DNA of 64,000 nt from Phyllosticta citribraziliensis (lineage: Eukaryota), in the NCBI RefSeq assembly GCF_038025025.1, contig NW_027117353.1, forward strand, positions 558,001 to 622,000, in the 5' to 3' direction. Shown here piece after piece: positions 2,882 through 37,944 of the stretch; the first letter of the stretch is position 1; every line of letters begins with the position of its first letter. Under the pieces are notes generated by a model. It saw nothing but the letters and a program-made list of their open reading frames with translations, ran no database searches and had not been told where the DNA came from. A program made the translations under genes and the position numbers.

Positions 2882-5800
2882 GATGGTTGATTTGATGAGG
2901 TGTTGGACTGCTGATGTGTGGAGAAGGTGTTGAATATTGTTTGAGTTGTAGGGAGAGTGGATTGTTGGTACTGGCTGAGCGGGGAGGATGTGTTGATGAT
3001 GGTGTGGAGGATGTCGCGAATGCGCCCCATTATATAGTCCAGCAACTCTTCAGAAGAAGTCCGCATTGTTGTGGTTAGCAGCCGTCGAGCCCGGATGACT
3101 CGAGTCATTGACTATATTTAGTCGAGCGTTGTCGTCGAAACCCTGGGTAAGTAAAAAAGCATATCTTTAGGCACAAACGCTCGCTTGCCAAAGGCATTTT
3201 GAGTCGATAGAGTTCAGAATTTGGCACCATCACCACGGCGAAGATGTGGAGAAGGAAGTTGATGCCCATATGCCGTCGCTTAAAATTCTCCGTGTTATTC
3301 CATTGTTTTTCTTGTCGCACAAGTACGGCGCGACGATGTAACGGCTGTCGCGGATGTCCTTCGTGAAAGTACCGAGGAGGTTATGTAACTGAAACATCCA
3401 GATTGGGACAGCTGACTACGCTGGTAGACAAATATTGACAGGTTCAAGGAACCGATTGCTCCGAGTGGGTGCGTCGCCTTGTGTACGAACGGGCCGCGCG
3501 GCCGTGTATGAATGACACTGCCCCGCCCACGCCTCGCCGCATAACCTTGATGGAATTCTGGTGAGGAGTGAAATTCGCCAAGGTAGTTGTCAATACAGCT
3601 CGGGCCTCCCGAAGCTGTATGCTTTGTCCAGCCGGTAATACGCCTGAGAAATCCAAAGAGCCACCACGCGAAGTGGACAGCCACAGAGTACGAGTAACTT
3701 ACGCTTACAGCTCTTTTACCAATTGTGGTTAGTTGATGATCGGAAGAGGCGTCAAAAGGCGTCAAAAGGCATAAAAACTAGAGCCCATAGATATTGCTTG
3801 TGTCTCAGTTCAATCTGGACGATACCATTTCGAGAAAGAACGAGGTGTTGATGCAGGGCTGAGCGGAGTTTAGCCTCTTCGGTGCGGAAGCCCGCTGCGA
3901 ATCCCAGTCTGCTCCGAGCGGTCCGTCCCAACCTCACGGGCCGTGCCATTCGTTGAATCGCTCGCAGTTCCAAAGATATTCTCTGGCTCTGGCGTGTCAT
4001 GGTCGAAGATCAAACCCCGACAAAGAATCAATACTCTGTCTCCTCCCAAGCGGGCCGGGAAAATGCGAGGTCGGCTCGGTTTCAAGAGCACTGCAGGCAG
4101 CTGTGTACTTGGCCATCAGGCCCGGATGCAGCGCAAGTTCCAAGTATACTACGCTGTGGCGTACAACCAAGGTGAGCTGCTCGTGTTCTGGAAGCTTTAA
4201 GGCAACGGGCGTGTGCCACTGACGAAGCTTCCTCGTACTCAGCCTGACGTATGTTACAACGGACACGTGAGAAAGAGGGGTCTTGCACCGGATCTGGAAG
4301 CCTTGGGCGACTTTGCGTTGGCCTCTTCCTTTGACGATTCTTATTGCGGAGGTGTTTCCGCCTGCGCTGAAGCAGATCAGGCAGTGGTAACGACAACTAA
4401 GTTTAGATCCAGAAGTATCCTTTCGCGGCCGGCGAGCAGGTCTGGTAGTTGAGAGCGCCGGGTCCACGCGAAGGCAAGCAAACAGAGTCCGTGTTTTAGT
4501 TCATAGGGTTGCGTGGAAGCATGCAGATGCGCGTTCTCGGCTGTCGGATTGTTGTGCCGCGACCCTCGAGTTGGGGTTGTTGACTTGTTTTGGTGACAAG
4601 AGTCCTTTCCCCGCGGGCCGGCTAACATCGATTAACCTTGTTTGAATTTGCGGGCCTCAATTTGCCTTCTTTTAGCAATGGGCTTTGGGGCTGGCTTAGT
4701 CGACTGAATAGCATGTCGCTTTGACAATTGGCTGGAGCCATCCAAAATATCCATGCGATTGATCCACATAATTCGTGTTTCCGGGAGTGGCTTTTAGGTC
4801 GTTGTCAAGCCGCGGGATAACAGGGTGCGAGCCACCCGTGTTTATCGAAGATCTTGGTATTTTCCTTTCGTTCCGGTGCTCTTCATCATCGCAGATGGAG
4901 GACGAGACTTAGGCGAGCCACGTCAAATAAAATGGCTTGGATGAATTGTCGGTCTCTTCCGGTAACCGCCAAGTATAGAGAGCGTTGTCTCCTCCTGTTC
5001 TTCACCATTTTCAAGCCGCCATCGATTGATCCTCTAGCCAACCCCTCTAATCGCTTTCCCCGCTTCACGACGTGCCGTTAAGACCCAAGTCGACAAAGTT
5101 AGTACTGTAAGGTGTTAACGCGTCCTCAAGCAAAAATCCCGTAGCCTTGATTGTTTACTCACCGTCAAAGTGTAATGGGGTGACATGAATGGCCCAAGCT
5201 AGTGCCGAGCATGAGCACAAATACCTTGTCTTGTACATGCTTTTCGGACAAGAGCATAATTGCCCCAGTAAGCGATGGCTTTGGCTAAAAATTGATCATG
5301 GCCAAAATTCTTCCGTCTTGGCCAGTCGTTTCTGTTACTCACTGCTTGAACTGTGCCTTGGTCTTCGTTCGAAGTGCCGGGGAATCTTTGCTACATCCAA
5401 GCGGACCGCCGGAGCAGTTTTGAGGTTTAGAGTTGCAGTCGGATAAGCTCGGACAACGCCTGCGGATGGAACCTCAAGGGTATGATGCAGAATCGTCTCG
5501 AAGAATTTTTCCGGGAAAGATTTTTCGCATGCGGGGGAAGAAGGGGAAGGAAACCAGGTAAGCTCACGAATGTCGCTTTCGCACTCGCTTTCGAGGATTT
5601 TGGAGGTATCTCCTTTGGCGTGATTACTGTGTCTGGTATCAGAGCAGAAGCTGCGACGATTATGAGCTCCCACATCCAGTGTTTAGAGAGGAACGCGACA
5701 AATGCCTTGGTGGTCATTCTCTGACGCGTTGGGACGGGGAAATCTTGCCAGAGAAATGCATGATCGTCTTCCTGACTCACGAAAGCGCGATGAATTCAAA

Positions 5801-7026
5801 AGGCTCTTCGTACTCGGCCCTCGCGGCGAGCATGCATCGGTCGTCCATCCCGGATTCCGTGGAAGCTGCCTGTGATGAGACTGGACATGTTTCCTGGACG
5901 GCCTGGAGATGTGGATCCAGCCAGTTCTGCCTCATCAACGGAGGTTCGTGCCAAAAGCCGGGGGCATGTCCAGCGCCTGAAACCAGAGGATGGCAGCAAC
6001 GATCTTGTGGGCGACTCAAGGCAAGCCCATGGTCTACCGAAGAGAGCCTTTCGTCTGCCAAATCCGAGAGACTGGACATCGCAGGTACACTCAAAATTTC
6101 CGATTCCTCCACCAATTTTTGTGTGTCACTGGCGACCAGAGGCAGGACCGCTCGCTACCGATCAAGCCGTAGTCCTTTATCCAAGCAGACCGGGGCCATC
6201 GGAGGTTTTCGTGTTCGCCCGGATCGCCGCCCGAGCTGGTTTGCGCTGCAGTTGAATGAGGCAATCCGACGGGTCCGCGTGCTTCCTGAGCCGTGGGTTC
6301 CTAGTTTTTCGCCTAGGGAATAGAATCTGGCGCAACAACGTCAGCGTTTTGTAGAAGATTCGTTAGACGGAAGATGTCAACGCCGACTGCTGGCGAGTAC
6401 CTACCAGACCGGCTCTCCGAACGCGTCATGCGACAAAGCAGCGGTCCCGCCTCTCGAAGGAAAATCCATTGCTGAGAAGGTAAAAGAATCAACGCTCAGA
6501 GCGGTTTGGCGACAGAATTGTAGAAGAGTTGATGAAAACGTGTCGTCAGAAGGCGACGGGTTGACGTCGTTCGGCGGGGTGATGGAAAAGGAAAGCGCCC
6601 TGCGGGACGAGCCGAAGCCACGCGACCATCATATCAAAAGTTAGGAAAGCCACAACTTTTGTTCCGGTCACTGCACACCTGGAAATAGACTTGATTTAGC
6701 CTGCCTTTCTCTGTCGCCTCAAAATTTGTACGAATCTGCTGAGATTGAGGCTGGAGGTCGGTGCAGTGACGCAGCTGGTGGGTGAGTTCCTGGTTCCATC
6801 CAAAATTCGCACCAGCCCCAACTTCGCATTCCATCACGCATACAACCACCATTGATCAGAAAAGCTGTCCTTACATAGCTCGAGCATAAACAAGCTCCTT
6901 CGAAAGAACGGCCGTGAGCTCGCGCGCCACATTGAACAATGTGAGCTCAAAAGTAGTAGTATATATTGTATACAGGCGAGCCCAATTTTCAACAGCAGTT
7001 AACTCTGAATGGAGCAAGCTGACCTG

Positions 7027-7142
7027 GGCTGCTTGGCCGAGTGGTTATGGCGCTAGTTTCAGGACACCTGAACAGAGTTCCGAATTAAGGAATCCAATTA
7101 CTAGTTGGGCAACCTTCGTGAGTTCGAGTCTCACAGCAGTCA
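7027..7142 (+). tRNA. tRNA-Leu(CAG) with 35-nt intron (7064-7098)
   Basis: Acceptor stem GGCTGCT/AGCAGTC with discriminator A, D-arm GCC-GAGTGGTTAT-GGC, anticodon stem CTAGT/ACTAG with CAG at 7060-7062, long variable arm, T-arm GTGAG-TTCGAGT-CTCAC, T-run terminator at about 7148. Confidence 0.95.
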
Positions 7143-7646
7143 ACATCTTTTTTGCTTTTTGTTTTGCCCTTCCAGCGCATCAAGCGAGCATCTGAACATG
7201 TCAACGAAGCGAAAATGTGCAAACGTTGGCCCATACCGGTTTGCGTCTGTTACATCTTCGCCACTCGTTCGGCAGCTCAGCCACGCTCCTCAGCTTTGTT
7301 CTCGCTCGCATTTCCAGTCCAACATGTCCGAGTCTTTTCAAAGCGGACCGTCTCTTTTGCTCTTCGCCCTGAAATTTGTTCGGGTCCATGGCTCCATCTG
7401 TCACACCAATATTCCCAGTTCTCGAACGGACTGATGCCCTCGGAAAGACACGGCAAACGCATGCTCGTTGAACGAGAGATGGACACTTCGACTGAGTCCG
7501 AAATTGCCTTTGCTCAACACGCTTACGTGCACAAAATGTTTTCGGACCGACAATAAATCGAAGACTGCGCGTCCAACTCTGAGCCCGTTCTCCTTAAGAA
7601 CATGTGCATTTGAATGGAAGATATTTACATCGACGGCATCTGCACT

Positions 7647-9013
7647 TTACAAAGCTTCGTACTCCAAACTGGCCAGAATGAAGGGACCGGCTCCCTTCAA
7701 GTCATTCTCGACAACCGGCACAGTGGTGTAGTACTCGTAGCTTGCATCGCCCTTCAAGCTGCCCACTTCGACAGTTCCCTCCCAGTTCAGGTACCCACCA
7801 GTCGCGTTCGCCTTGACAAAGTTCTGCACCAATCCCTGGTAGCCCGTCGTACCCGCGGTCTTTGCGCGCTGCGCCAGGTCGCCAGTAAAGTACTTCAAGC
7901 GGAGTCCCTTGAGCAGAGAGTAGACAAACATGGCAGAGCCGCTGCTCTCAATGTAGTTGCCCTCGCGCTCAGCGAGCTCAGGGTCGAGCAGAAGCAACCA
8001 GCCATTGGCAGTGTCGGACGTGTTTCCGACGCGCTGCACGTCGATGACGCCGCTCATGACGTCTTGGAATTGGGCCTTGAGATCCGCAGCGTTGGTCTTG
8101 ACATGCTGCATGTCGCCGGTGGCCGACGAGTTGGCCAGCAGCGCGTCGAGCTCTTCGAGAATGTCGACGGCCGCCATGGTCCACCAGCCCAGCGCGCGGC
8201 TCCAGACGTACGGGCTTGCGCCGGTTTCGGGGTCGCTCCAATTGCGCCGGGACGAAGCAGGCTCGGAGCCGTCGTAGCCGTGGTACAAGAGGCGCGTGGT
8301 CTCGTTGTAGACGTGCTCGTGGATCAGAGTGAACTGCTTGTGGACATCCAAGAATGCAGTGGCGTTGGTCGGCGCAAAGAGGCGCGTGTGGTGCACGTAG
8401 AGCGGAAGGGCCATGTAAATGCCATCGAGCCACTGCAGTTTGTCAGAGTGGGTTTCCAGGTAAGTCCAGTCCAAGTCAAACTCTTGAAAGCAAAAGAAGT
8501 TTCGCCCAAGTCATTTCTTTGTGGAAAGGAGCAAACAAGACAGGTCAAGGAACCAAAAGGAAGAATACGCACCATCTGATTCGGGTAGTCCGGATCACGG
8601 TGCCAAAAGCCTCCCTCTTCGTTTCTTGGTTGAACGTTCAACCTATCCCTCAACGTGTCGGCCGCAACTTTCCACTTCTCTTCACCAGTCTTTTCCCAGA
8701 GGAGCAGGTAGATGTTTCCCATGCGAAAGTCGTCCAACGACTTCTTCTCCGGAGGCCAGTCCGCAATCGACCCGTCGTCATTGACCAGTCCCTCGAGCTG
8801 GGAATCAATGAACGACGAGTAGCTGGCATTGCCAGTTGCTGTGTGTACCTTGTCAAGGGCGCGGTACAACACTGCTTGCTCATAGCCCAAGTCCTTCTCC
8901 ACGCCCTTGGCCAAGAAGGAAGAGGCCATCCATGATGAGTAGGGCTGTGCGGAGAGGACAGGGGTGGTCAAGAAGGGAAGGAGGGAGAGGGAGAGTGCAA
9001 TTGGAGACTTCAT
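7647..9013 (-). CDS. Secreted glycoside hydrolase family 105 (unsaturated rhamnogalacturonyl/glucuronyl hydrolase)
   Basis: Signal peptide; exons 9013-8573 and 8432-7647; motifs GGFWHR..YPNQM|WLDGIYM, LLYHGYD, WSRALGW, YIESSGSAMF, GPFILA. Confidence 0.92.
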
Positions 9014-9166
9014 GTTTCTGTTTGAGCGCCCACTGGCCGAACAGTATAGAAGGAGTGGGAAAAGCGTGAAACTGCGGCTGAAGCACAGTGGATCGAAACC
9101 TGGGAATGAGTGACTGATAAACGCCGAACTTGCTGAAGCAGGAACTAGGAGAGCTGAAGTCCAGTT

Positions 9167-9410
9167 TATACAGCCATTGTCCTACTTACTCGCCTACAAG
9201 GCATCGCCGCGGCGGCCTGCATTCACCCTCCACTACCGTCTCCACAACGCCCCTTTCTTTTTCCACTCCCTCCGCCAAGGTGCGGCCTCCACAAGGAACA
9301 GCGTCCTCGAAAGAGATCAGGCAAACATCCAACACGTTCATGGCCCCCAACCGACTTGGCGCTGTATGAAGTGACCGGGTAGAGGGCTTGGCTGCCGTTT
9401 CTGGCCTGGC
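9167..9410 (-). promoter_or_regulatory. GH105 promoter: TATA plus CCNCCAA (GaaR-type) and GCCARG (PacC-type) motifs
   Basis: TATAAA on the minus strand at about 9165-9171; TCCGCCAA 9271-9278, CCCCCAA 9344-9350; GCCAAG/CTTGGC at 9274, 9355 and 9387. Motif matches only. Confidence 0.4.
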
Positions 9411-10066
9411 GGAATGGTGGAGCGGACATGCTTGACTGATCTTGCCTCAAACAAGCTATTCTGGAACAGGTAGGTGGATAGATGATTCGACGGAGAAATT
9501 TTGTTGGCGAGCTGAGGGCCCAAGCGAGCGCGCGCGCAGTAACCTGGTCCGTGAACGTGGTGTGGTACTCATGGGGGCCGCGCGTGCGGGGCCCCACGCT
9601 GGTTGTTGGGCGGATCCAGTTCTCCCGCTTTTGTGGCTCTTGTCCGCGATCCGATCTCTTCTTCCTCATCTTCAGCCTCTACCGGATGCATCGATGGCGG
9701 TTGTTCTGTTTTTTGCGCGAGACGCTGCGCGTGGTGTTGAAGTGAGTTGCTCGCTTAGCGAGCGAGATACGAGAGATTGCTCGCTCGTACAGTTGAAACG
9801 CCGAGATCAGGCCTGTGGGCCCTGCCGACTGCTCTGATCCTTCTGACGACAAAACGGCTGCAGCCGCATGGAAATTTGGATGGAGTTCAGACTACCGGCG
9901 TATGCAGCGCACTGAGAACCCTCCAGTCATGTTTCAATTCTCACCCAAGCCCAGAGTCCATCCGCAGACGGAGCTGTCCAGCTTTTCATCCCATAGCTAA
10001 CGACAGAACGTCTTCTGCGTGTAGGTTCAGCTCTCTCGACTCGATGACAAGATCAAACAGTGAATC

Positions 10067-11571
10067 TTACCAAATAACCCTTATGTCCGCAGTACTTGAT
10101 ACCATACCTAGACGGATTTTGAGCATCGCAATCTTCCACAACACCCAAATTCGAATGCACCACAATCGATACCGTAGCATGACGCAGTGCGGACCCATGA
10201 TGAAGTTTCGTACTTCATTCAAATACAAGACAAAGTATGTAGCCAGGAGCAGTAAGGCCGAGGTGACAGCCCAGCTCCAGAGACTTGCGCTCGTCAATTC
10301 CTGGAGAAGTGAGCATTACATCCAGCTTAACATATGTTTACGCTTACTTTGAAATTCATGCCGAAAACGCCCGCAACAAATGTCAGGGGAATAAAGAAAA
10401 ACGCAAGTTGTGTAAGTTGAGTAACGTGCTCAGCTTCCCTAATGACTTTACTACTTTCCTTGATGCTCATCGTACCAATGAGAGCAGAGAAAGTTGAATC
10501 AAGGTGGCGCTGAATAGATTCGAGCTTGAAATTGTTGCGTTGTGATTCTTCAAGAATCTGCTCGATGAGTTCACGCGGATATTTTATATCCTCCAAAGCT
10601 CGAGCAACTTGATGGTAGAAGTGGCGTCGGGAGTGTATGTACGCCCGCCCATGTCCCATGATCCACTGCCAGCCCTCCATCATCTGCTTCAGAACTTTGC
10701 TGAAAATCATTTCCTTGTCGATTTCTTGGAGGCCGCGCTCCAAGGTGTCGAGAATCTGGCCCTCATCGAACGGAATGATTTGACAGAGGATGGCCTGTAA
10801 GAATTCGGCGACAAATAAACCCCTGGCTGGCTGGAAAATGCCGCCTCGAAGAGTGGCGACCAGGTAGGAGTAGGCTGATGAATTTACTGAGAGGACAAAC
10901 ACAGTGGTTTCAGGCAGTTTAAGATAACAAACGCGTTCTTTCCTAGCCCACGTAAAGTTGAGGGAAGGTGGTGCGGTCACTCTTAGTGGCGTTTTGAATG
11001 TTTCTTTGAATCCATCGATGTCCACACCGGCAGCTAGCGGAATCGGAGAGAAAGTGATTCGGTTCCAAGCCAGGTACAGGCCGCGGCTCCCAGAGCCGTC
11101 ATTCACGTTTATCGACATGGCCTCTTCTTCTTGGTCATTACTGACGAGAGATTGGGCGAATTGTGTGACTGGTTCAGGAGCTCCTCGAAGCGCGAGGTAG
11201 GAAAGGAGAATGGGCATGCGGTCTGGGTGTGTATCGAACCCCCCTCCACCGCAATCAATGAGCAGAAGAACTTGGTAAGAATCTTCCTTCCGTGCATATT
11301 GTGACTCGTGTGTCGCAACACTGTGTTCGAATTTCTCCACGGGCGTGTATATCGTTCTGTGCGACTCGAAACTCCCGTCCTGAGCTTCGATGAAGTCGAA
11401 TACATAGACTGCCGTGCTGTCTTGTTGCGGAATCTGTAAATCGAGTCCACAACCAGAAGCCTGGTCGACGTCTTCGGACACCGTATCGTCGAGATCGTGG
11501 TTCGAAAGTGACTCGTCTTCGTCGGTTCTCGCCGGCTGTTGCCCCTTCTCAAGGTCATCAGGGGTATTCAT
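10067..11571 (-). CDS. CorA-like membrane protein, tandem copy 1
   Basis: Exon 11571-10348, intron 10347-10301, exon 10300-10067. C-terminal AEHVTQLTQLAFFFIPLTFVAGVFGMNFK|ELTSASLWSWAVTS carries the CorA GMN signature and two TM helices. Confidence 0.85.
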
Positions 11572-12172
11572 GACAGCTTTCCAGAAACAGGTGATGCTTT
11601 GAAGTGTGGTAGAGTCTCCCAAGTGTCGATTTTGGATCAGGTAGGAGTGTGTCAATTTGACGGTTGTGTGTCGTCCTAGAGTAATTTGCGCAAAGATTTC
11701 GTTTTACGAGCGACTTGCAGCGGAACAGTACGGAAAAGAGATGGGGATTCAAGGTCCAAGGCTGGAGGCCGGTCGCAGAGACTTATCTCTATGAGCCACA
11801 TCATAACTCTTGCTGACAATACGTGGTGCAGCTGTCAGCAACACTGCGCCTTGTTTTCTGCAGACCCTGGCGTATTGACTGTGGCTTGCAGCGGAATGAG
11901 GCTGCGCAGCACCAGACGTTTCCTGCTGTTAATGGGCTTCCCGTGGGTGGTTCCGCTCAGATGATAGCTGGGAATTCTTATCAGTCGTTGAGCATGCAAA
12001 ATAAAGCCCATACAGGTTGATCATCTTAGTATGATAACGATCACAAATTGGATCCTTTCTCCATTCAAGTCCGTCCTGCAACCATGTCCTAGTTGGGCCA
12101 ATATGGACCGATAAACAGCGTTGAGCATAAAAGACATCGCTCTGAAGAGTTTCTCCACGGTCCTCGCAAACG

Positions 12173-13142
12173 TCAAGAGATAAGCTTGTACAAGGATTGT
12201 ATGGCCAAGAAGTAGAAAAACGTGGTCATGGTGTACGAAAACAGAGCCAGTGCCATCCAGAAGACTACAGTCAGCGCGGCTCTTGTCCAAATTCTGACCA
12301 GCAACTTCCAAAATATTCGGCAATTCAACACCACGTAAGTAGCAGCGAGCCGTGAAAGCCAATGCTATTGCCTAGATCCAGATATTGAAGTCGGCAAGCT
12401 CTACATCGCCCTGGGCAGTATTTGCGATGGATGTCTTACATTGGGTTGCACGTTGCAACCCACGCAGACCACGCGCCGAAGAATACCCCTAGTCCCGCTA
12501 CGCCTAAGCTTTGCTCCGTCCTTTTGATTTGGCGATGGCTCATCATCTCAGAAAGAGCTGGACGTGTAGTATCCAGATGACGCTGGACCTCATTTGATCG
12601 AGCATCAAGTTCGTTGTAAGATTTTTGTAAATCTTCCCCTGTTGCTCCTGAAAGAGCAGCGACATCCAATGCTTTTGTGAGCCGCCGCTTGAATTCACGG
12701 CTTGAATGCAAATGTGCTTGCCAGAAAATCACAAGCCACAACAACTCAGATCCCAAGCGATGAAGCCATTTCCGGCTGCCCCTGAGCTGATCGATCCCTC
12801 CTAGCTCTTGTTTGATACGATCCAGGACGTTGTGCTCGTCAACCGCCACCATTCTGGCGAGGCATTCTTTGAAGAGCTGAGGCGGACCGCGTCTATCTGT
12901 CGCTTGTCGGCTTGAATCTATCAAATTGTTGGCAAGACGTTCCACTGTACTCTTGAAGTGTTCGGCTTTTTCGGCTGGAACCAGTTGGTGCTTTTCTCAA
13001 TCTCCAGTCGACCAGGCTTTAGGCGAGTTCCTCGAAAGTTGACAGCCAGAGTAGTGTGAGTCGTTGAAAGAAAACAAGTCTCCTGCTTCAGAGCGCATTC
13101 GAGTTCGATATTCTTCCCGACGCTGTGTGTGTGCAAGGGCAA
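12173..13142 (-). pseudogene. CorA-like pseudogene, tandem copy 2
   Basis: Helical region homologous to the neighbours (DEHNVLDRIKQEL..ID; RHLDTT..AL). GMN segment lost, N-terminal half absent, frameshift at about 12945. Exon-2 remnant ELADFNIWI*A..LAATYVVL has TAG (12372-12374) where paralogs have TGG, plus a second frameshift. Confidence 0.7.
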
Positions 13143-13537
13143 ACCGTTAATGCGAGGTAATTTGGTCGGCTGATGTGGCCTCAGTGAGACAAGGGGCGGA
13201 TACCCCTGAGACGTCCACTTCTGTAGTCCGTGGGCCGACTGGAAGATAGGAATTCGAATTGCAGCGCGAGGAGTCTGTTATCTAGACAAAAGGCCTGCGA
13301 ATCCAATTGCTCAAATTCCAAGAGAGCGGCGATTGGAGTTGCTACTCCGAGACCATGCTGGACAAAACAGGTCGGAGTGAACGCGCAGCCCGGAGCAAAG
13401 CGATGAAGTGGGAATCTGATGAAGGTAAGCTAGCGATTGTGTAGCTCCGACTAAATGACCTAGTCCTTCTTTGATTCGACTGTTGCAGCTGCTTGAAGGC
13501 TCGTGGCTTCTTGGCAGCTTGGAGGGAACTTTCTTTT

Positions 13538-15094
13538 TCAGCGATACATGTGTCCATCAAGATGATCTGGAAAAAGCCTAAAAACATCTCCTTGCACTAC
13601 CGTCCCTATCACCTGTTGATGTACCTGCTGATGCCTTTGCATTTTTACAGTAAAGAATGCTCGGGCATACAGGACAAGGTAGCTTGTGAGCAGTAGCGCT
13701 ACTGAAGCCACTACCCAGACCCAGATGCTCACGTTACTAAGCCCCTAGGTAGACTTTAGCGGTGATTAGATCAGTCATGATAGTGTTTAACTTACGTGTA
13801 TATTCATGCCAAATATGCCGGCCACGAATGTTAGAGGAATGAAGAAAAAAGCGAGCTGAGTAAGCTTTGTTACTTCCTCAGCTTGTTTGACGGCTTTGTT
13901 GCTTTCAATGATGCTCGCCGTACCCACCAACGTGCTAGTCACACTTGTGAGCGCGTTGGTAGTTGATTCTAAGTGGCGTAGGCCATCCTCAACCCACTGC
14001 GCATACTCAACGTACGCTTCTTTCATATCCTGTCCTTGACTTCTGATCAACTGGCCCGTGACCGTCATGTATCGAGCAATATGCCGTTTAAAGTCGAGCC
14101 TGGAATATAGTTTTGATCGAAATACCCCAAGAATAGACTGCCAAACCATCATGGAGAGGATAAGCAAGCGCTTGTCCCCCATGTCGACGTCCGTTCGGGA
14201 AAGAAAGCTGTCCAGTCGGCCAAAAAATTCTCGCTCACGTTCCAAGATAATCCAGAAGAACCGGCTCTCAAAACATCCGAAAAGCTCCGGTCCAGAGACT
14301 GATTGGCCGTCAAGCTTGGCCATATCCGCAACGAAATGTCGCATTGTGATTTGTGCGTGCTGCCTCTTCTCCCTCTCGCGTTCTCCTCGGGCTTCAATCA
14401 TATCGTTGTCGAAAAGAATAACCAATATGGTATGAGGTAGCCGAAGGAAGTGTAGTTGTTGACTCTTGTTATATTCCACAGCGATGCCCCAGATGTCTAG
14501 GTGGTGCGTCAACCATGAGTTAGAAGTTGACCCCTCAACCTTACCCTCTGAGTCCATTCTGTAAAATTGAGCTTTCTTCATTGAACTTTCTCGCATCCAA
14601 CTTGGGCGGACGCTTCCACCTTGAGATAGAGTATAGAGAGGTTCTTTGATCAGCTGTTGTAGAATTTCTTTGTCCGTCGCGTGTAGAAGTTCGCGTTGAA
14701 ACAAGTAGTTCTTCAAGTGTCGATTCACCGCACAATGGCTGTCCGTCTTAACGATAACTATCTGCAGGCTGTCATCATTTCCCGCCTGTTGAGTTTTCGA
14801 TCTTTGGGAAAAGTCTTCCAGAGTACTGAACGTCGTTCGGCGACAGCGGCTATTTCCATCTTGGTCTTCGACGAGTTCAAGGATGCAGACAGCTGCCGTG
14901 TCGTGTGATGAAGTATCTGTACCGTCCAAGTTCTCGGAGTCGTCGTCTCTGGTGGTGCTTTCGACTGGCTGAGAGTGATCCGTCTGATCCGAATCGGTGC
15001 GATTCTCGTCGGGCATCGGTTCGATGTTGTCTCCATTCTCAGGCTCGGGCCCTTTTTCCAAATCCTCGACTGGATCCATGCCAGTTGTTCGCAT
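13538..15094 (-). CDS. CorA-like membrane protein, tandem copy 3
   Basis: Exon 15094-13796, intron 13795-13745, exon 13744-13538; QAEEVTKLTQLAFFFIPLTFVAGIFGMNIH|GLSNVSIWVWVVAS. Confidence 0.85.
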
Positions 15095-15837
15095 GGCGAA
15101 AGGCCTGAAAACGGTATCACAAATGTCCAGCTCGCAGTGGCGGTTTCCTGTGGTCCGCGTCCATTGGACTCAGAGAAGGCACATGGCTTGAGGTTCGTGA
15201 TGGCGCTCTTGAAAAGAGTGGACCGGGAGCCAGGTTTGGGGTTGCGAAAGGGCTTCGCGAGGCTGAAAATCGACGAAAAGCTGTTTTCAGCCGCCGAGCT
15301 GGTCGCAATTGCTGACGGCGCAGCTTGCAGCGGTGAGTCCCGTCACTTGCTTGCTATCAGCAGATTCTGGCGATCCAATTGAGAGTGTCGATTAAGATAC
15401 AAGGACCCATGGAAGAAAGCTGCGCGATACGCTGCAGCTGATAGTGGGGGCGGATACGTAAGCGCCATGCTCATGCAGTGTTTTCCAGATTTTTCAGCCC
15501 GCAGTCGGCAAGACTGCCGTCCAAGGCGATTTCGTCTTCCAGCCTTTTGTAGCGAGGCTGGCTTTTGAGGGGCCAGTGTGGCCACCATTTGAAAGGATGG
15601 GTCAAGGCTCCTTGAACGTTCGCAATTTCTGCAACCCCTGAGTGGAGGGAAGGCAAGAAGTTTCCTTTCGGGGGCGCGGGCCGAGGGACGTATACAGGGC
15701 AACTTGAGTCGAGAATCGGACTTCGACCCAAGAGGGAATGAATGCAGTGCTCAATGCTTTGGATTATGGAAATCTACAAAAGGTGAAAGACAGCGAAGTT
15801 AAATGGAAGTCTAGTCCATATCCCAATTTCGTCCGAC

Positions 15838-17485
15838 TCAAAGATTTCGTAGGTCTCGTTTGATCGAGAAGTATAGCGTCTGGAGTACAGATATGAGCTC
15901 AAGGACCCGCCCAACCTCTCCAAGGCCAAAGACATCCAGCCCGCCGCTTCTGCCAATAATAAAGCAGGATGTTGGAAGGAGCCAGATCGGTATGGTGAGA
16001 GTGATGAATGCGATCTTGAGGATTTTAATAGTCCTTCGGGGATACAGGACCAAAATAGTGATCGATAGAAGCACGATGGAAGTGACGGCCCAGACCCATA
16101 TGCTCAAATTTGCAAGCTCCTGGACACATGTTAGATGCTGAAATAGAAACTGGAATGTCTTAGAATCGACCGACCTCTAGATTCATGCCGAACAACCCCA
16201 CGACAAATGATAAAGGGACGAAAAAGGACGCCAACTGAGTCAATTTAGTAACCTCCTCGGCTTCTCTAATTGCTCTTGTACTTTCGTTGATGCTCATTGT
16301 TCCGATCAAAGCAGTGAATGTAGATTCGAAATGGCGCAGGGTGCCATCGAGCTTTGAATTGAAATCATCAAGGGCATCCTGTTGTTGCGAAGGGATTCCA
16401 CCTGGAGTTCCTGAACGCTTTATGATACGCTCGATTTGCCGTTGGAGGTTGTGTCTAGAGAGGATGTGGCTGCGCCATTCTCCCATGTTCTTTTTCAGTA
16501 AAGCCATCTTGAGCTGTAGGAACTCACGGGTGTCACGAGCTTTGAAAAGGAACCCCACATCTGGAACACCCATATTTGGAAGTCCCATTTCCACGTCAAT
16601 CTTTTCGAGCTCTTTCTCAATATGTGTGAGAATCTCACACTCATAGTCAAGTACACTCTGGCAAGTCTCTTCTTGGATGAACCGGATCAGTTTAGACTTG
16701 GACGGAGTTTGGGTATTGAGTTGTGCCAAATCTGATGCTAGACGCTGGGCAATGGTTGTGAATCGCGGCCGTTGAAACTCAGTGGTGACGAGAACCACAA
16801 TGTTGGAAATCCAGAAACACCAAATGTGCTCATAACTTAGTGGGCAAGGGGTGTTGAGAAAGCGGTAGAAATCCTGTGTATTTTCTGTTCTGCCCGCTTT
16901 GATCATGTCCCCGAGGAGGTCGTCGATTCCGAACGCGGTTCTGGTCAATATGAAAGGAATGTTCTTCCAACCTAAGTGGAAGCAGTCGTCGGCGCTTCTT
17001 TCAATAATCGACAACGGCGGGTCTACCACTATTGCACAAAGTGCCTTGATCTCCTCCTGCGGCACTCTACGGGTCTGTAGAAAAGTTTCGAGGCATCTTT
17101 CAGGAGGTTGACCGCGCAAAAGCAGGAGATGCAGATTTTCCTGGATTTCTGCCGCATTTGACGTCTCTTTGACATTGGCTGTGTCGAGCTGGTGGGTCCA
17201 TTCGCTCGAAGACTGAAAGGAAGTCGTGTGCAGGTCGACTTTCCCATGCTGACTTTTGACGTATTCGAAAATCCAGGCTTTTGGATTTCCTGCATCACTC
17301 GCGCCGCTATAGTCGTCGGACGGGAGCTTGATGGAAGAGAACTGGTGATTTGCGCGGTCCTGGTCTGTGTGGCCTCGTTCTGTATGTTCCTGATCGCCGG
17401 CAGTCTGCTTTTGTTCTTCATCCGGATCAGGTCCGCTGCTGCTTTGATTCCGGAGGCCCAGTTCAGGGTCGCTGTTTGGACTCAT
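15838..17485 (-). CDS. CorA-like membrane protein, tandem copy 4
   Basis: Exon 17485-16175, intron 16174-16120, exon 16119-15838; EAEEVTKLTQLASFFVPLSFVVGLFGMNLE|ELANLSIWVWAVTS. Confidence 0.85.
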
Positions 17486-17990
17486 GGTCGATTTCCAGCG
17501 GCTGCAAAGACTGCAGCAGGCGTGATCCTTGACACTGAATCGGTGGGCCACAGGCGAAAAGATGTTGTCGCTTCGCGAGGCTAAATGCAGGGCGTGCGGC
17601 ACTTATCTACCCTTTCCACAAAATCTGTTGCTGTTAGGGAATGGCTGATGGCGCCGCACGGCAGCATTGCCGACGTATTGTCTGCAAGTCCAGGCGGCTG
17701 GCCTCACGGTGCTTCCCGAGTCCCATCGAACAGCATAGCTGTGACGTTGAATGATTGGCTTACCGGCGTCTGTTGCTGAAATGGGGGCCATGATTGTCGA
17801 TGCCACTGCACTGCCGACGCATTTTCTGCAGATTGAGCCAGTCAATTTCCGAGAGGCGTCCTTTTGAGTGGCTTGCGCATCGATATGGCGGCTTGCCTCG
17901 TGATTCAAGTGGGCAAGACAGATGTTGAAGCCTTCAGTTCTGCGTGGTTGCAGTGAGTGTCCAACAAGGGCAAAAAGCAAAAAGAAATCA

Positions 17991-18098
17991 TGACTAGGGT
18001 GCGATTCGAACGCACGCGGTTTCCCACTACGGGCTCAGTTCTAGCCTGGAAGAGCTAGCACCTAAACGTAGCGCCTTAGACCACTCGGCCACCTAGCC
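17991..18098 (-). tRNA. tRNA-Leu(TAG) with 28-nt intron (18033-18060)
   Basis: Reverse complement reads GGCTAGG-TG-GCCGAGTGGTCTAAGGC-G-CTACG-TT-TAG-G[intron]C-CGTAG-TGGGAAACCGC-GTGCG-TTCGAAT-CGCAC-CCTAGTC-A, with a downstream T-run. Confidence 0.95.
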
Positions 18099-19349
18099 TG
18101 GATGATGCCGGCATCTCATTGAGACACGGCGAACATTGTCGAGATTGAACCGAATCGAGCAGCTTATAAACAGGGCATGCTCCGAACTCGCCCTCGCCTC
18201 CCAATATCTCTTCGGCACTCAGTTTGATTTGACTTGATGTCTTCGATATCTTCGAGAGAGAGGGAGATCCCAGACGATGTCGGCAAAGGAGCGTCAATCT
18301 GCGAGTGCCTTGACGAGATGCGACCGGGGGAGACAAGAGACGCCGACGAAACCAAGCGGAGGGGAACGGGTCAAAGCATTGTTCCGGAGCGGTGAGAGCT
18401 GCGCCAATCATGTCTCAGGTTGCGGAGAAGTGGTTGAGATGCTATCAAGCCAAAATTCGATCCTCACGAGTCAGCTGTGGCTGTGACCAATGCTTGGTCG
18501 ATGCGACTGCAAAGGATACCCGGCAACCCTATATTTAAACATGGCAAAGGCAGATTTGGTTGGAGGTTTGCCATGCTATTCCCGATCGCAGGCGGATGTC
18601 GGGAGAGCGGGACAGGGAAGAGAGTCTGCATGGATATTCGAGTTGCCTTCTTTGGACCATCAGCGCTCGCTGCGGAGGCCGTACGGTTGACTGTCCAGTG
18701 GATCATCTCTCTAACCAGAAGAGAAACGGAAGCAGTCCGCGGCGAGAAGCGTTTGATCCGCGCATGTTCTGGCCGACATTCATCGTGGTGGTCGATAGCA
18801 TTATCTGCATGTCTGGAGCGTAGTTGCATCAAGATAGACCGAGTCAGGGTAGATGTCGAACACGAAATGCTAATAGTCGGCGGTTCCTAGCCGTCTGACG
18901 CGTCCTGGAGCAGAGGATCAAGACCGAAAGCAGGCTGGGGTTGGCGCAAAGCGGCAAAGGCTGGAGATGATGCTGGAGACGATGCGGGCGACGGATTGGG
19001 GCGCCATTCCATTCCGCAGCTAGTTTCTGGCCCAAGACGTGAGTAGTTTCGGCGACTTTGCGGAGAAGCAGAGGAAAAGGTTGGTCTGCGGGCGGGGGAG
19101 AGTCTGGAGGTGATGGATTGCGGTGCGGCGGTGCGGCGGGGCAGCGTTGCGCGCGGGTTGAGCGGCGGGACCCGGCAGAAAAATCGCATCTCAAGCAAAC
19201 ACTCGTCTCTCTCCATCTACTCCTCGTAACCCTCCGCCATTCTCTCCTCCAAACTCTTCCTCCGTCCTGCTCGCCGTCGCCTCTTGCCACTCGTCTTTGG
19301 CTCTTGTCGTCCCCTATCTCCCCGCTTCTTCACCACCCCACCACCCAAA

Positions 19350-20531
<1,182 letters not shown>

Positions 20532-23500
20532 GCCGAGACACGCAAAGCGTTGCCGGATGCGTCGAGATTGGACATAGATGGAGGGCAATGGATGTCTGTG
20601 AAGAAAAAGCATATGACGACTTGTACGGCATGTCATGTGAAATGGAAATGCAAATAGCGGAAATGAAGCATGTGTGCACGGCCAAGACTGCTCAGTTCGT
20701 GTGCTCAAACCTTTGGTGCTGAAAGACGCAGATGCGGGAAGGATGGCGTTCAAATGAGATGTGATGGGTGTTGTGCTTGAAGCACAAGACCCAGCTTTCA
20801 ATCAAGGCTAAGTCCAAAAGTTGTGAGCAAACCGCCGGTGCTGACCACCCAGTGGATTCTACAGGACGAGCTCAGTCGCTCTCCGCACACTTCCATCATC
20901 AACCAGCGCCGCGCCGTCTTGTCATCTTCAGAAAATGCTGTCCATCATCAACCTCAAGTAGACGATGCCAACACCGTGTTGACACGGAATGCAGAGCTTC
21001 CCGCACTCCCTGATCCCATATGGACGCAAGACGCAAGGAAAGAACAGTAAGGCCGTTTTGGAACAGTGAAGAGCGAAGAAAGTATCCGGAACGCGAGGAT
21101 ATTTTCTCTTACCGGAAGAGCAGAGCGGCTGTTGGACCTACCCCAGAAGCGTGGGAGAGGGAAGCCTTTATACACCTTCACCTCCCAATAGCCTGTACGC
21201 TACTTCGCCGGCATCACTATCACAGGGACAGCGCGCGGCCCTGTCAAAAGTCCAGGTGACGCACTGCCGCATGTGGTCCAGCTCAGCCCCTGCACGCGCT
21301 CAGGACTTCCTGATGCCTTGCGCCTGTGACTGGCCTGTGCTGCCTTGCTGGCGGGCTGTAGAGCAGTACAAACACCGCCCATCTTGCTCCGCTTCCACTT
21401 CTCACTGCACAGCGGCGCCGGTCTGTGGCTCGACGCCAACCGAAGCAGGCAAACCAGTCACTGGTGGAGTATGGTGCATCGATTCTGAGTACTGTGGAGG
21501 ACGGACATGGGAAGCGCTCAGCGCGTGTCTAGAGTCAGCCGGCTTCATATATCCTTACTCTGATGGACAGCTTCGTTGTGCAGTGCTGCTGTCGACCCAG
21601 ATACGGCAATGGTGAGATGCAGCATTGACGCATCAACTTTTCTTTTGGGATTAAAGCAGCGGTAGTACGAGTGTATCCTGACCAACATGCCGGAGCACCG
21701 CCCATCCAACCACTAGCAAGCCTTGCCAGTCAACCAGTCTGCAGAGCCTCGATGGGGTATTAAAACCCCTAGGCTTCGGCTCCAGCTTCTCACAGTCCGA
21801 CAAACGCGTCCTCACGGCAACACCGTGAGCTTTCGGATGTTGAAGACTCACTCGTGGAGAGAGACCACGAAGAGAAATCTAGCACTGGACGGTGCGTTCT
21901 GTGTTTGTTCAAATTTCTCGAATCCGCGGAAAGGAGTCCGGAGTCTGACGTAACCCGCAAGTCCGCACAACAAAGCCTGTCATCGCGATGCAGTAATAGT
22001 TCAGGGCATCATTAAGACACGCCACACTCACTACACCTCGATCACTCTGCCCAAACAGCCAAGCAGCCGAACGACGCGACGCAGCTGGACCGAGACAAAC
22101 GACCGCACGCGCAGTATGTAGCATATCCCCCACATGCCACGCAAGTATCCTGGTAGACTGGTCGCTGGAGCCATACCAGCGTTGGCGGAATGCGTGCTGG
22201 CTGTAGTTGTGGGGGAAAGAGGTGAGCCTTTATACCCCTAGATTTGGACTTAGGGGCTACGGCGGAGGCAGGTGCTGCGCTTTGCGGCACTCACATGCTC
22301 TCTTGCGAGTCACATTGCCTTCGCTTTGAGCCTCTGACGGCCTGTGATTGCTGTCGTAGCTTCGAGGTCCGTGCCGGCGGCTTGACGTATAAAAGCGGCT
22401 TTACTCCTCCTCTGGACTGAATTGTCAAGCTGCTCTGCTTAATGCCTTGGGAGCATGGAGTTAACATCAAACGCTTGAAACAAACCATAACAAAAGATTT
22501 TACTTTGTGCGGCGCGTCCCGGCAAAATGTGAGAGGGTGAGGCAGAAGAATGCCCCCAGCCTCACGTCTTACAATGACGTCGCTCGTCAACGCCGTCCAA
22601 CGGTGGACATAACCATCGCCCTCCCCTGACAAAGAGGACCATTGCAGAGCAACACCACTATGGGTTCCCGGATTTGACAGCGCACACGCTTAGCTCAGGG
22701 GAAGCCACGAAAAAAGGAAACCCCTCGCAAGAAAAGAAGTCTCTTCGATTGCGACGAGTTTTGCCACTTGCCCATAGGAAGCGGGTGAGAGGTTGACAAT
22801 CCAGCAGTCCTGGAGCTGCAAGAGTAGCGTTTTTATACCGCTCCCGCCTAGCACACAGACGCTGATCACGGACAAACCTTCGACTCACATGGCGTCCATG
22901 CCACGACACCGCCGCTGCTAACAGCTGCATCTGCGCGAGGGGCTAGCTTGTGACAGACTGCCTGTCTATCTCGTGCGCGTCCTTCTCCTCGTAATTTCTA
23001 CTTGGATAGGTATAAAAGGAGGCGCTCCGCTGTGATGAGTACCACATTCGGTGGCCAGGACAGCCTACGTTGTGAAAAACATCATGAGGAGTCTGACTGG
23101 TCTGCCTGTGTGTCTATTCGGATGCAACAACGTACTGCGTGGCGTGTGTGCTTTTGTGTCCTTTTGGGCAGCGCCGCGCCTTTCGCTTCTCTTTTCCTGT
23201 CAGAAGGCAGAGGCGAGATACTGCGAGGACAACGGTGGTTGGCACTATCTTTCCACAATGAAGGTGAGCTCCTCATGCTACGCTGACGCTGGAAACCTTC
23301 TTCCGTCGTCAACGGCAATCTCTGGTCAGTAGAATCAACCACAGAGGGACCACGGATGAGCCCAGCAAGGCGAACAAAAAGGCAAAGCCAAGAGTGTGTC
23401 ATGTGGTAGGTGAAGAGTTTTTCATACTCGCGATTTGCGAGAGGTGGGTGAGGATTCCTCGCCGCCAAAGCAACGGCTTTTATACCTCCCACCGTTACGC

Positions 23501-23807
23501 TCTAGCCGAGCACATGTCCCACACCGCGTCGTCACTTGACCGGCGTACGTAGCAGAAAGCTCGTGACAGCTCTATCCATGTCCTGCGCTTCCAGGTATGA
23601 AAAACGCCCTCCTCGCGCCCAGACCGAGACCCAGCATGTCCAGCATTCCATCATCTAGAGGCAGAGAAGAGAACAGAGACATCCTTCTAGAATCAACAGC
23701 AGCAACGACCCCAACACAACAACACGGGGACCGGCGACCTCCAAATCACCCCACAAGCAAGTCCGCCAAAAGTCTACTGTATAACGCAAAAACGGCGGTC
23801 AATCCCT

Positions 23808-23981
23808 AACCGCCAGTTAGCCGGGGCGCCGCGATACAGTATGACGCTCCTCGCCTGCGAATGATTCTGTCAGGCGCTGCCGAGAACGCTGGCGGTTGTA
23901 AGTTCGATCCTCGGGTCGAGCGGCAGATGTAGGGCACGGAATCCGGACCGTGTCTGAACTGTTTTGTCGTTTTTCTTTTTT
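23808..23981 (+). ncRNA. Candidate structured non-coding RNA
   Basis: 9-bp terminal stem AACCGCCAG/CTGGCGGTT enclosing two hairpins, followed by two further hairpins and T-runs. No family recognised. Confidence 0.3.
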
Positions 23982-25517
23982 GCCCGTCTGCGGTCTCTGG
24001 TCTGGCTGCTTCGCGACGACGCCTGTTGCTCACTTTGCTTTTATGGCTGCCGCGCGCGGAGTCAGAGAGTTGAACATCTCTTTTGGCACGTTCAGCATTG
24101 GGGAATCGTAATGCTCTCCACCGCTTGTGGTCCGCTGGGTCAAGGTTGTCGAACGATGTTGAAGCACGTTGACACTACTCCACGTGCCATGGTCACAATC
24201 CGGGCGAAGGATGAGAATCTTGATCCGGTCTGGGCCAGCAGGTGATGTGCGAATGCAAGGCTGGGTTGGTCAGAGGTAGAACGTCAATCCTTCTTTTCGA
24301 TTCCTCCAGCTATTTCATGGCAAGATATGCCGGTAAGGAGCATCAGGAACTGCCACTAAAGGGATCTTTCAAGATCCACCAAGTAACAGGACGGAGAGCA
24401 TGAACATGTACCTGTTGCACATGGACATGACAACAACATGTGCCAAATTCTTTCAACAGACATCAGACCCTGAAACACCCAACCAAAAGCAGACGCAGGT
24501 CAAATGCGCTGGAAGCCGAATCTCTGCACGACATGCCGACCATACGCGTCACCAAAGCCGTCCGTCCCTGACAACACTTTCGCTCTCGCTCTCGTTTAGC
24601 TACGAGCGAGGCTCGTACAGACACATCACCACCTCAGCCGCAACCGCAGCCAAACCAGACAAATGAGGAGCATCGCCCCGGGTTGGAGACATGTACCGAC
24701 GCCGTAAATCCGACGACGGCACCGGGTCGCGGATCCAGCGCGATCCGCTCGGGGTCCTCGACGTCTCTTGGTCTGAAGAGGCGAGCGGCCGTCGCCCGAA
24801 TGCTTTGGGCTTAGCTTGATGCACTTGTTTCCTCACGTCCACCGCGGCGGTGTCTGGGGGTTTGAAACTGTTGTGGGGTGGGGAAGGCAAGGGACGGATG
24901 CGCGCGGGGGAGTGCGGAAGGACATGTTTCTGTTGTTTGAGCTGGTCGAGAGGTGAAGTTGGGATGGCTTGCCTGCTGTCTTGTCGGGTCAGCATCTGCT
25001 GGTACACTAGTGGCGATCACAGCGGCAGAAGCGAGCGTAAACTCAGGGTCTTTTCCACTTGGGAAAGCTGCTTTCCCCTGGGCGCGAGCGGCTGTTCATG
25101 TTGTGTTTTGCCTCGTTTGCCGAGTGGTGTTGTGATGGCGGGACCTGCCAAGTCGGCAAGACTTGCAAATGCTGGAGGTGATTGGTATCGAAGATGTTAC
25201 TCGTGATACGGGAGCGAAGTCTGAAATTTGATTTCTTTTCTCTGTATAGCTGCCCAGACGCAGTTGATGGGTATGATGCCGAGTAATGTCGGTGTTGAAA
25301 ACCAAATGAGCCATCCGTCGAAAATACAACCAGCCCAGCCGACGCTGTTGAAATCAGCTCATTCAATGTTGAAACATCACGCCAATGCCATTCCCATTGT
25401 GAAACCCCACTCTCCCAATCCAAACGCCGTGCCGAAGTTGTTGAATCAGAGATCTTTCTATGGGAGCGCGTGGTCCCTGGTGTTGAAAAAGTCTTCAAAG
25501 GCGAATGTTGAGACGCT

Positions 25518-31511: not shown

Positions 31512-31983
31512 TGGGATGGGTGTTTTTGGAGAGAGAGAGTGAGTGAGAGTGAGTTGTGGAGTGAGCGTGGGAGGGAGGGCGAATAGGAAGAGATGCATGC
31601 ATTTGTGGCGTTGGCGTTGGGATATGGGATCTTGGATCGGGATTTGTTCCCTTGTAAAGTTATGTATGTACGTGTAGGATATTGGTGTTGTAGAGCGCCC
31701 GCAGCTGCAGCTGCAGTGAATTATTCCCGACAGTTATCAGTCACATCACTGTGAATGGTTTGTTTGAGTGTAGCAATGTCTTCCGATTTGCTGTTTGTAC
31801 AATGCCTAGGTACAAGGCAAGTCCATGTCCACCAGTCCGTTTCTTCCAGCATGAAGTCGTGAGTCGTTAAAGGCCAATGGTGTATCGACAGACACTGCCA
31901 GGCAGCGCACCATCAGGCCGAGGGTATACCAAAGCAAGAAAAAAGACCTCCCACTACGCAATCTGTCCACCACCGCTCATCGC

Positions 31984-32585: not shown

Positions 32586-32725
32586 GATGGCTGTGATTGT
32601 GGTTGAAGGTATTGGAGTTGGTTGAATTGGTTGGTTCGTTGAGAGTGACGAGGTTGTTTGGTAGAGCAGAGGCGAGGTTGTTTTGTTTTGGTGATGGGTG
32701 GCAGCAGTGAGGTTCTGTCAAGGGC

Positions 32726-37891: not shown

Positions 37892-37944
37892 TGGACTGAG
37901 GGAGAGAGGAGGGAAAAAAGGGAAGAGAAAGCAAGAGAGCCAAC

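Follow-up and report, generated by a model that had tools for sequence, protein, structure and literature searches.

The CorA-like array and its transcripts

The window analysed here is a 64-kb stretch of the genome of Phyllosticta citribraziliensis, a leaf-dwelling fungus (contig NW_027117353.1, positions 558,001 to 622,000). On its minus strand, at 10014-17485, lies an array of CorA-family genes, of which three are intact (copies A, C and D, encoding proteins of 484, 501 and 530 amino acids (aa), respectively) and one is decayed (copy B). When the spliced A, C and D proteins were used as tblastn queries against the window, exactly four loci were returned, all on the minus strand. An earlier reading made from the letters only (hereafter the sequence-only reading) had described four same-strand paralogs with a conserved pore and a hypervariable soluble domain, and had proposed an immune or allorecognition family. 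The observation of a fast-evolving CorA-like array is confirmed by the present analysis, and the interpretation overall is partly supported.

Gene models were compared with contigs of two public runs (from two studies) over window positions 5000-24000. The library type is not on record, and the runs were taken as RNA because their contigs carry exact GT..AG intron removals. All 12 listed contig joints are bounded by GT..AG on either the plus or the minus strand, and for those within the array, four in number, it is the minus strand. Contig depth was uninformative on expression level.

Copy A opens with an exon of 408 codons (10348..11571, minus strand, as are all array features below), an open reading frame (ORF) with an ATG that encodes the acidic N-terminal tail, funnel, stalk, first transmembrane helix (TM1) and GMN motif plus two codons, and that matched Pfam CorA at E 6.6e-12. 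Intron 1 (10301..10347, 47 nucleotides (nt), GTAAGC..CAG) is in phase 0, two codons past GMN, and corresponds to a contig joint at 10299>10347 in both runs. Exon 2 (10071..10300) encodes the second transmembrane helix (TM2) and the C-terminal tail; its final bases, TG, are completed to a TGA stop by the A at 10014 upon removal of intron 2 (10015..10070, 56 nt; joint 10014>10071, both runs). Copy C consists of a first exon of 433 codons (13796..15094, covered by unbroken contigs 13795-15249 and 13845-15370), an intron of 51 nt (13745..13795, GTAAGT..TAG) at the same position and phase as in A and D, and a second exon with TM2, C-tail and stop (13538..13744). Copy D has a first exon of 437 codons (16175..17485), an intron of 55 nt at the shared position and phase (16120..16174), and a second exon that encodes TM2, an extra hydrophobic helix (a possible third transmembrane segment), C-tail and stop (15838..16119). 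The copy D donor, GTCGGT, is unusual, though it is used in both runs (joint 16118>16174). The contigs of the two runs show precise removal of all three post-GMN introns, which bears out the shared intron position that had been read from the sequence.

The spliced product of copy D is identical to a deposited P. citribraziliensis protein (P0001, 530 aa). Two deposited models exist for copy A, one with a different 3' end (P0301, 505 aa, labelled partial) and one in which intron 1 is read through and TM2 is missing (P0009, 414 aa). For copy C, the deposited P0300 equals the protein described here except for a stretch of 16 aa that its model drops; the corresponding 48 in-frame nt (14498-14545) are spliced out in P0300 and kept in the contigs of both runs, and may be an optional intron. 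The annotation of copy C in the window's own assembly is a fragment of 93 aa (P0150). In each run, one contig (window 8432-11710, in pieces 8573-10014 and 10347-11710) links copy A to the downstream same-strand GH88 gene (Pfam Glyco_hydro_88), which reflects either overlapping transcripts or read-through.

Copy B (12436..13160) is a dead gene. Its funnel/stalk remnant is spread over two frames (family hidden Markov model (HMM) 62.6 bits, E 1.4e-20), in-frame stops lie upstream, and the part that would carry TM1 and GMN is gone. Its closest relative is P0155, the middle gene of the array of P. capitalensis (tblastn E 9e-20; 13160-13023 in frame -3 and 12978-12478 in frame -2). Copy B is spanned by one unspliced contig (12032-13743) that starts from the second exon of copy C; any transcription of the relic is therefore probably no more than read-through out of that gene.

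Fold and motifs of the encoded proteins

The first exons of A, C and D matched Pfam CorA (PF01544) at 45.8, 44.8 and 46.4 bits, and full-length D at 55.2 bits, against a cut-off of 27; 13 of the 14 homologs tested were likewise above it, in agreement with the family assignment previously made from GMN. The FGMN motif lies at aa 404 (A), 429 (C) and 433 (D) with hydrophobic segments on both sides, which are helical in the models of C and D. AlphaFold models (predicted local distance difference test (pLDDT) 79.1 for D and 76.7 for C) begin with about 60 disordered residues, after which come an alpha/beta domain and two long helices; a very long helix then continues into TM1 and is followed by TM2. 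When these models were searched against the PDB using Foldseek, Thermotoga maritima CorA chains ranked first for both D and C (E 4e-9 and 1.7e-9, probability 1.00, about 390-430 columns), and the Atlas's own model likewise matches the CorA fold. Since the match to T. maritima CorA runs over the whole length, the so-called hypervariable soluble domain is, as modelled, the usual CorA cytoplasmic funnel. A novel sensor domain fused to a CorA pore was considered and ruled out, the fold being that of full-length CorA with no second Pfam domain found. A Pfam family named 'CorA-like' (PF26616) is present on a related Atlas cluster and gave no match to the array proteins.

Preceding the fold is the acidic N-tail that the sequence-only reading had pointed out. 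Within the first 70 aa, acidic and basic residues (D+E / K+R) number 19/2 in A, 21/4 in C and 14/6 in D, and the motif near the start is DLEKG in A and C and DPELG in D. In copy D the disordered tail comprises aa 1-61 (17303..17485), with the N-terminal D-x-E-x-G motif and with pLDDT <50 at residues 12-15 and 17-61; equivalent tails are found in A and C. The pattern D-[LIVMP]-E-x-[GQSA] occurs within the first 20 residues of 18 of 52 stored family proteins of >=380 aa, and would fit the D-x-E form of di-acidic signals for export from the endoplasmic reticulum. The common domain start that had also been remarked on (AVYVFDFIE / AVCILELVE / AWIFEYVK) corresponds to strand 1 of the folded domain.

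The loop after GMN does not contain the MPEL motif, which defines the bacterial type and not the CorA superfamily: GMNFEYMPEL of structure 3jcf aligns with GMNLEELANL, and the copy A and copy C loops read GMNFKELTSAS and GMNIHGLSNVS. Copy C has no acidic residue in this loop. The bacterial CorA equivalog model (TIGR00383) scored 26-30 bits, far under its cut-off of 200.75, and the ZntB model (NF007092) scored 12-17 bits, below its cut-off of 292.

These features bear on whether the genes encode ordinary transporters for magnesium uptake or distribution, of Alr1/Mnr2 or Mrs2 type. The GMN motif, the CorA fold and the presence of transcripts agree with such a role, as does the phenylalanine before GMN, a feature of the ALR clade according to the part of PMC4945025 that was available. 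Against it, the nearest Atlas clusters are Ascomycota sets labelled 'CorA family / hypothetical', none of them named Alr1, Mnr2 or Mrs2, and a solved Mrs2 was matched only at E 0.033, as compared to 8e-10 for bacterial CorA.

Divergence of paralogs, orthologs and allele classes

Identity among A, C and D is 23-35% in the N-tail, 21-24% in the soluble part, 70-72% in the stalk-TM1-GMN segment (53 columns) and 35-38% after GMN, so that the contrast between an almost invariant stalk-TM1 and a barely alignable soluble part, noted beforehand, was reproduced. At the DNA level, the conserved segment of copy A (10354..10534) is 71% identical to its counterpart in copy D (16181..16361). The proportion of synonymous differences (pS) between paralogs is 0.63-0.91 and saturated in every region, from which it follows that the duplicates are old. 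The proportion of nonsynonymous differences (pN) is 0.16-0.18 in the pore segment, where pS is 0.67-0.83, and 0.51-0.55 in the funnel. Low pN together with saturated pS indicates that the pore is held by purifying selection; gene conversion as the source of the conserved segment was ruled out by the same pS values. In the available text of PMC4945025, divergent primary sequence outside the GMN/TM region is described as the norm for CorA proteins. The argument from a conserved pore and a hypervariable soluble domain to immunity or allorecognition is accordingly weak, the funnel being ordinary and its divergence normal for the superfamily.

Relatives were collected by an HMMER scan of cluster representatives with copy C exon 1 as the query, which returned 682 matches at E<=1e-3, 63 at <=1e-10 and 4 at <=1e-30; most of the 682 cover only the stalk-TM part (residues ~270-432). 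All named relatives are ascomycetes (Phyllosticta, Glonium, Glutinoglossum, Orbilia, Penicillium and several Sordariomycetes). The neighbouring tRNA isopentenyltransferase gene (IPT, 26827-28179) was used as the baseline for divergence; its product shares 96% identity with the P. citrichinensis counterpart, 92% with that of P. citricarpa, 87% with that of P. capitalensis and 55-59% with those of other Botryosphaeriales. The best relative of copy A is P. citrichinensis P0010 (76.5%), which ends just short of the stalk/TM region, and that of copy D is P. citrichinensis P0002 (55%), which is without about 240 N-terminal residues. Array orthologs of 55-77% identity therefore stand against 96% in IPT, and the array genes diverge 5-10 times faster than this neighbour. 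Relatives in P. capitalensis share 43-46% identity with D, and 34-38% with A and C.

In P. citricarpa and P. paracitricarpa, the family is represented by fragmentary entries of 147-184 aa. These entries (P0151 of P. paracitricarpa and P0303 of P. citricarpa) look like two partial stalk-TM pieces of different members fused in one model, and the first piece has IQL where the family has an invariant IPL, which points to erosion of the array in the citrus black spot group. Together with relic B, the truncated and fragmentary copies in several species bear out the birth-and-death turnover that had been proposed. Extreme divergence relative to IPT and the loss or truncation of copies in congeners are also difficult to reconcile with ordinary magnesium transporters, and of the explanations considered this one fits least and is very improbable.

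In six P. capitalensis assemblies, CorA-like genes were found within a few accession numbers of IPT on the same contig. Assembly IWZ01 has three consecutive ones (..244, ..245, ..246), and one further P. capitalensis paralog (P0296) lies on a different contig. The gene order outward from IPT is D-C-B-A in the window and C-group, P0155, D-group in IWZ01. In a maximum likelihood tree of 25 rows, the Phyllosticta sequences form a clade (support 93/92) with a D-group (100/99), a C-group (95/94) and an A-group (100/100), the last made up only of copy A and its P. citrichinensis relative. The P. capitalensis members of the C-group and of the D-group each form a clade without the window's copies (99/98 and 100/100). 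These groups, together with the proximity of relic B to P0155, indicate that at least four array members existed before the species split. The array is genus-wide and syntenic, with unevenly divergent orthogroups. The sequence-only reading had named one-to-one syntenic orthologs under uniform purifying selection as the pattern that would count against it; synteny was seen, and uniform constraint was not. The conclusion that these are not housekeeping genes gains independent support in this way, because orthologs diverge far faster than their neighbour, copies decay, and the P. capitalensis classes are divergent and reshuffled, as described below.

Protein identities were determined for all 15 pairs of the six P. 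capitalensis assemblies. Identity ranged from 97.0 to 100% for IPT, from 42.9 to 89.7% for the C-group and from 70.0 to 99.4% for the D-group. Assemblies BKA78 and HDK90 are identical in IPT (470/470) and share 42.9% in the C gene; HDK64 and IWZ00 share 99.4% in D and 52.2% in C; BKA78 and HDK64 share 89.7% in C and 70.3% in D. One gene at 99.4% beside another at 52% cannot be the product of a uniformly high local mutation rate. The simplest reading is that of old divergent haplotypes that have been reshuffled by recombination between the two adjacent genes. In a three-way comparison of full-length D alleles, identity is 93-97% in the first 60 residues, 47-80% in the funnel, 83-90% in the stalk-TM region and 14-60% in the C-tail. 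The corresponding values for the C-group, as means over pairs of five sequences, are 73% for the first 30 residues, 20-45% along the funnel and 90% for the stalk-TM region. A further C-group entry (P0187 of assembly HDK77, 216 aa) has the N-terminal funnel part joined directly to ..AFFFIPLTFVAGIFGMN.. and represents an allele with an internal deletion or else an error in the gene model.

The claim that the array is less GC-rich than its surroundings also held. Array GC is 0.495, as compared to 0.537, 0.557 and 0.584 in the flanks, and the 8 of 125 windows of 1.5 kb that fall below 0.50 are all at 10001-17500; the array is the lowest-GC stretch of the 64-kb window. GC at third codon positions (GC3) is 0.52-0.54 in array genes and 0.67 in IPT. 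Repeat-induced point mutation was ruled out as the source of the low GC and rapid divergence, with array indices (TpA/ApT 0.58, (CpA+TpG)/(ApC+GpT) 1.29) like those of the flanks. Direct repeats and transposons were not found in the array except for the paralog segment.

Composition enters into a further explanation, namely that the array consists of leftover duplicates drifting towards loss under relaxed constraint, with a near-neutral funnel and with apparent alleles that are differently decayed or retained paralogs. Relic B, the truncations and fragments among the P. citrichinensis, P. citricarpa and P. paracitricarpa entries, the internally deleted P0187, the low GC and GC3, and the rearranged gene order between the window and IWZ01 would all be expected under this explanation. 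It is opposed by a stalk-TM1-GMN segment that is still 70-72% identical among paralogs despite synonymous saturation (83-90% among alleles), by the retention of the extreme N-terminal motif in paralogs that are about 25-35% identical overall, by the correct splicing of A, C and D in two runs and by the confident CorA folds predicted for C and D. Strain pairs in which one gene is 99.4% identical and its neighbour 52% are not explained by a uniformly high local rate either. Drift towards loss is regarded as unlikely.

The neighbours of the array, scanned as 21 flanking ORFs, are ordinary genes, with no signalling enzyme adjacent. The region 30000-39000 contrasts with the low-GC array in being GC-rich (0.59-0.66) and strongly skewed; it carries an 882-codon Fung_rhodopsin ORF and an NAD kinase gene. 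A short interval on the immediate downstream side of the GH88 gene (7027-7147) reads differently in the window and in the contigs of both runs: 8 substitutions and 3 small insertions fall at 7067-7112, and the contigs have loose ends at 7027 and 7147. The interval resembles a short fragment from some other locus, or a repeat. At 5104-6405, spliced contigs with CT..AC joints (5104>5163 and 6326>6405) mark a minus-strand gene; the longest ORF there (5562-6323) is on the plus strand and had no Pfam hit.

Interpretation of the array

The favoured reading, to which a probability of roughly one half was assigned, is that A, C and D are accessory CorA-type channels in which the gating domain, and not the pore, is under diversifying or balancing selection by an unspecified agent, or is subject to drift. 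As part of this reading, the array members would belong to an Ascomycota subfamily of the CorA/MIT '2-TM-GxN' channels, with three members intact and spliced in contigs and one decayed. Each protein would comprise the disordered acidic D-x-E-x-G tail of about 60 residues, a complete CorA funnel, a long stalk helix leading into TM1-GMN, and TM2. By analogy with the family and fold, the proteins may form pentameric channels for divalent cations whose opening would be controlled by the cytoplasmic funnel, as in T. maritima CorA. The channels would be accessory and dispensable and would not constitute the housekeeping magnesium uptake system; ordinary magnesium uptake is unlikely to be the array's job. 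The pore and stalk would be kept under strong purifying selection, with the funnel and C-tail turning over very fast between species. It is this turnover, taken together with the divergent, reshuffled haplotypes of P. capitalensis, that points to the gating or sensing domain, and not the pore, as the target of selection or drift.

Several points weigh against the favoured reading. Synteny and allelism in P. capitalensis were derived from the accession order of deposited gene models and the lengths of their contigs and not from DNA, and several of these models are truncated, so the identities given above are those of overlaps only. The C-group gene of BKA78 is represented by record P0288, which is identical to P0015 over their overlap (252/252). 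The divergence baseline is a single gene, and because that gene, IPT, differs by up to 3% among the P. capitalensis assemblies (two named species are at 96%), part of the divergence may reflect a split into cryptic lineages. Recent paralogs that were retained in some strains and lost in others could also be mistaken for alleles. The comparison across strains that had been proposed gave divergent classes in P. capitalensis and no polymorphism in P. citribraziliensis, whose two assemblies are identical for the A (484-aa prefix), C and D proteins and whose contigs show 0 differences over the array. Low GC3 (0.52-0.54 against 0.67 in IPT) and frequent truncations also fit weak constraint. Pentamer formation and gating are taken from the fold, by analogy, and the missing MPEL motif together with the lack of an acidic loop residue in copy C means that ion selectivity may differ from that of bacterial CorA.

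A self/non-self or immune death channel was weighed as the principal rival. Under this model, the shared stalk and pore would allow alleles or paralogs to co-assemble, mismatched funnels (in a heterokaryon) or a non-self ligand would unlock the pentamer, and the ion leak would kill the cell or wall it off. Divergent classes that are reshuffled between two adjacent genes, next to an IPT at 97-100%, are what the model would lead one to expect, and so are the invariance of the N-tail and pore, the location of the variation in the funnel and C-tail, and the birth and loss of copies (relic B, truncated congeners). Loss or truncation in several species, however, means that the genes are dispensable, which is compatible with but not specific to such a role. 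The array proteins and the 21 flanking ORFs scanned gave no match to HET, NACHT or any other known domain for death or recognition. The P. capitalensis alleles form their own clades, and trans-species polymorphism was not seen at the depth sampled by the 25-row tree, in which closer sister species were not sampled. Toxicity is purely conjectural for the array proteins. Taken together, the death channel is a tentative possibility, and a self/non-self role in general is plausible but unproven. A more specific form of the idea is rather doubtful, namely that the array represents a novel type of fungal self/non-self locus, combining executioner and recognition surface in a single protein, with funnel contacts locking the pentamer and mixed pentamers or a non-self ligand leading to a lethal cation leak. 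If it were true, the numerous CorA-like paralogs found in filamentous ascomycetes would constitute pores for recognition or immunity that have escaped notice as a class.

Filamentous ascomycetes have many CorA-like genes, which are usually read as magnesium transporters, and the Phyllosticta array is a tractable case that puts that in doubt. What stands out is the combination of a pore under purifying selection, a gating domain that diverges about as fast as possible, and very old haplotypes that recombine in a sister species. Fungal loci with such a signature are usually mating-type, incompatibility, driver or immune loci. Should the signal hold at the DNA level, it would point to a new channel-based mechanism for fungal non-self recognition. 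Should it fail, the array would still be a clear case of birth and death in a membrane-protein family, and at minimum it provides a natural set of variant CorA funnels in which gating of the pore by the funnel could be studied. In the available portions of the literature on the CorA family, Phyllosticta, balancing selection and vegetative incompatibility, no CorA-like array was found to be described that combines synteny with divergent and reshuffled classes of alleles; these portions gave only mentions of CorA in Morchella, Scedosporium, Endocarpon and F. graminearum.

Comparison with known systems

The sequence-only reading had brought up the CorA-family proteins that act as membrane effectors of some bacterial type III CRISPR (clustered regularly interspaced short palindromic repeats) systems. 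The array proteins share with them a GMN-type pore and a cytoplasmic domain that is potentially a ligand sensor. The PADLOC models of such effectors (PDLC01043 / PDLC01174) matched the array proteins at 13-23 bits (E 2e-5 to 8e-3) over 55-75 residues of the TM region only, and the array differs in having a eukaryotic host and no adjacent signalling enzyme. This match is not specific, a particular kinship with CRISPR-type CorA was not supported, and the weakness of the match speaks against the death channel as well.

With Alr1/Alr2/Mnr2 and Mrs2/Lpe10 the array shares the CorA superfamily, GMN and two C-terminal TM helices. The Alr1 and Mrs2 types are conserved and rescue magnesium uptake in yeast (as stated in the accessible text of PMC4945025), whereas the array genes diverge fast and are lost or truncated in congeners. 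Closer in Pfam family are the expanded CorA-like sets of ascomycetes, which the genome papers, in the excerpts at hand, treat as magnesium transporters. Expansion of CorA has been reported in Scedosporium, along with an accumulation of variants between two strains of one species (excerpt of PMC10694956), and in Endocarpon (excerpt of PMC3897900), and a CorA-like gene is a population-divergence outlier in Fusarium graminearum (excerpt of PMC10754465). A CorA transmembrane family appears among the expanded families tabulated for Endocarpon pusillum, alongside HET, ankyrin and P-loop families (PMC3897900, available part), and this can be counted in favour of the death channel.

The Morchella importuna gene mimpvic32 offers a possible comparison on the side of recognition; the details that follow are those in the accessible part of PMC8940278. 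Like the array proteins, its product is a polymorphic ascomycete protein of PF01544, and it is one of two candidates linked to vegetative incompatibility, which again favours the death channel. The linkage was obtained by bulk segregant analysis and is a mapping interval, not a functional test. Barrages also formed between strains with shared alleles, and the alleles are 92.6% identical, both of which count against that explanation. The gene differs from the array members in its length (765-773 aa), its 8 introns and allelic differences that are mainly C-terminal.

Of the systems compared, T. maritima CorA (PDB 2iub, 4i0u, 3jcf and others), a Mg2+/Co2+ channel, shares with the array the fold of the whole chain, that is, the alpha/beta funnel, the stalk helix continuous with TM1, and TM2. 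The TM1 sequences are very close, with ..PL(T/S)FV.G.FGMN.. in the array opposite ..PLTFIAGIYGMN.. in T. maritima, and identity outside the pore is about 11-13%. Relative to this bacterial channel, the array proteins add the disordered acidic tail and lack the MPEL loop motif, copy D carries an extra hydrophobic C-terminal helix, and the genes are eukaryotic, intron-bearing, arranged in tandem and fast-evolving.

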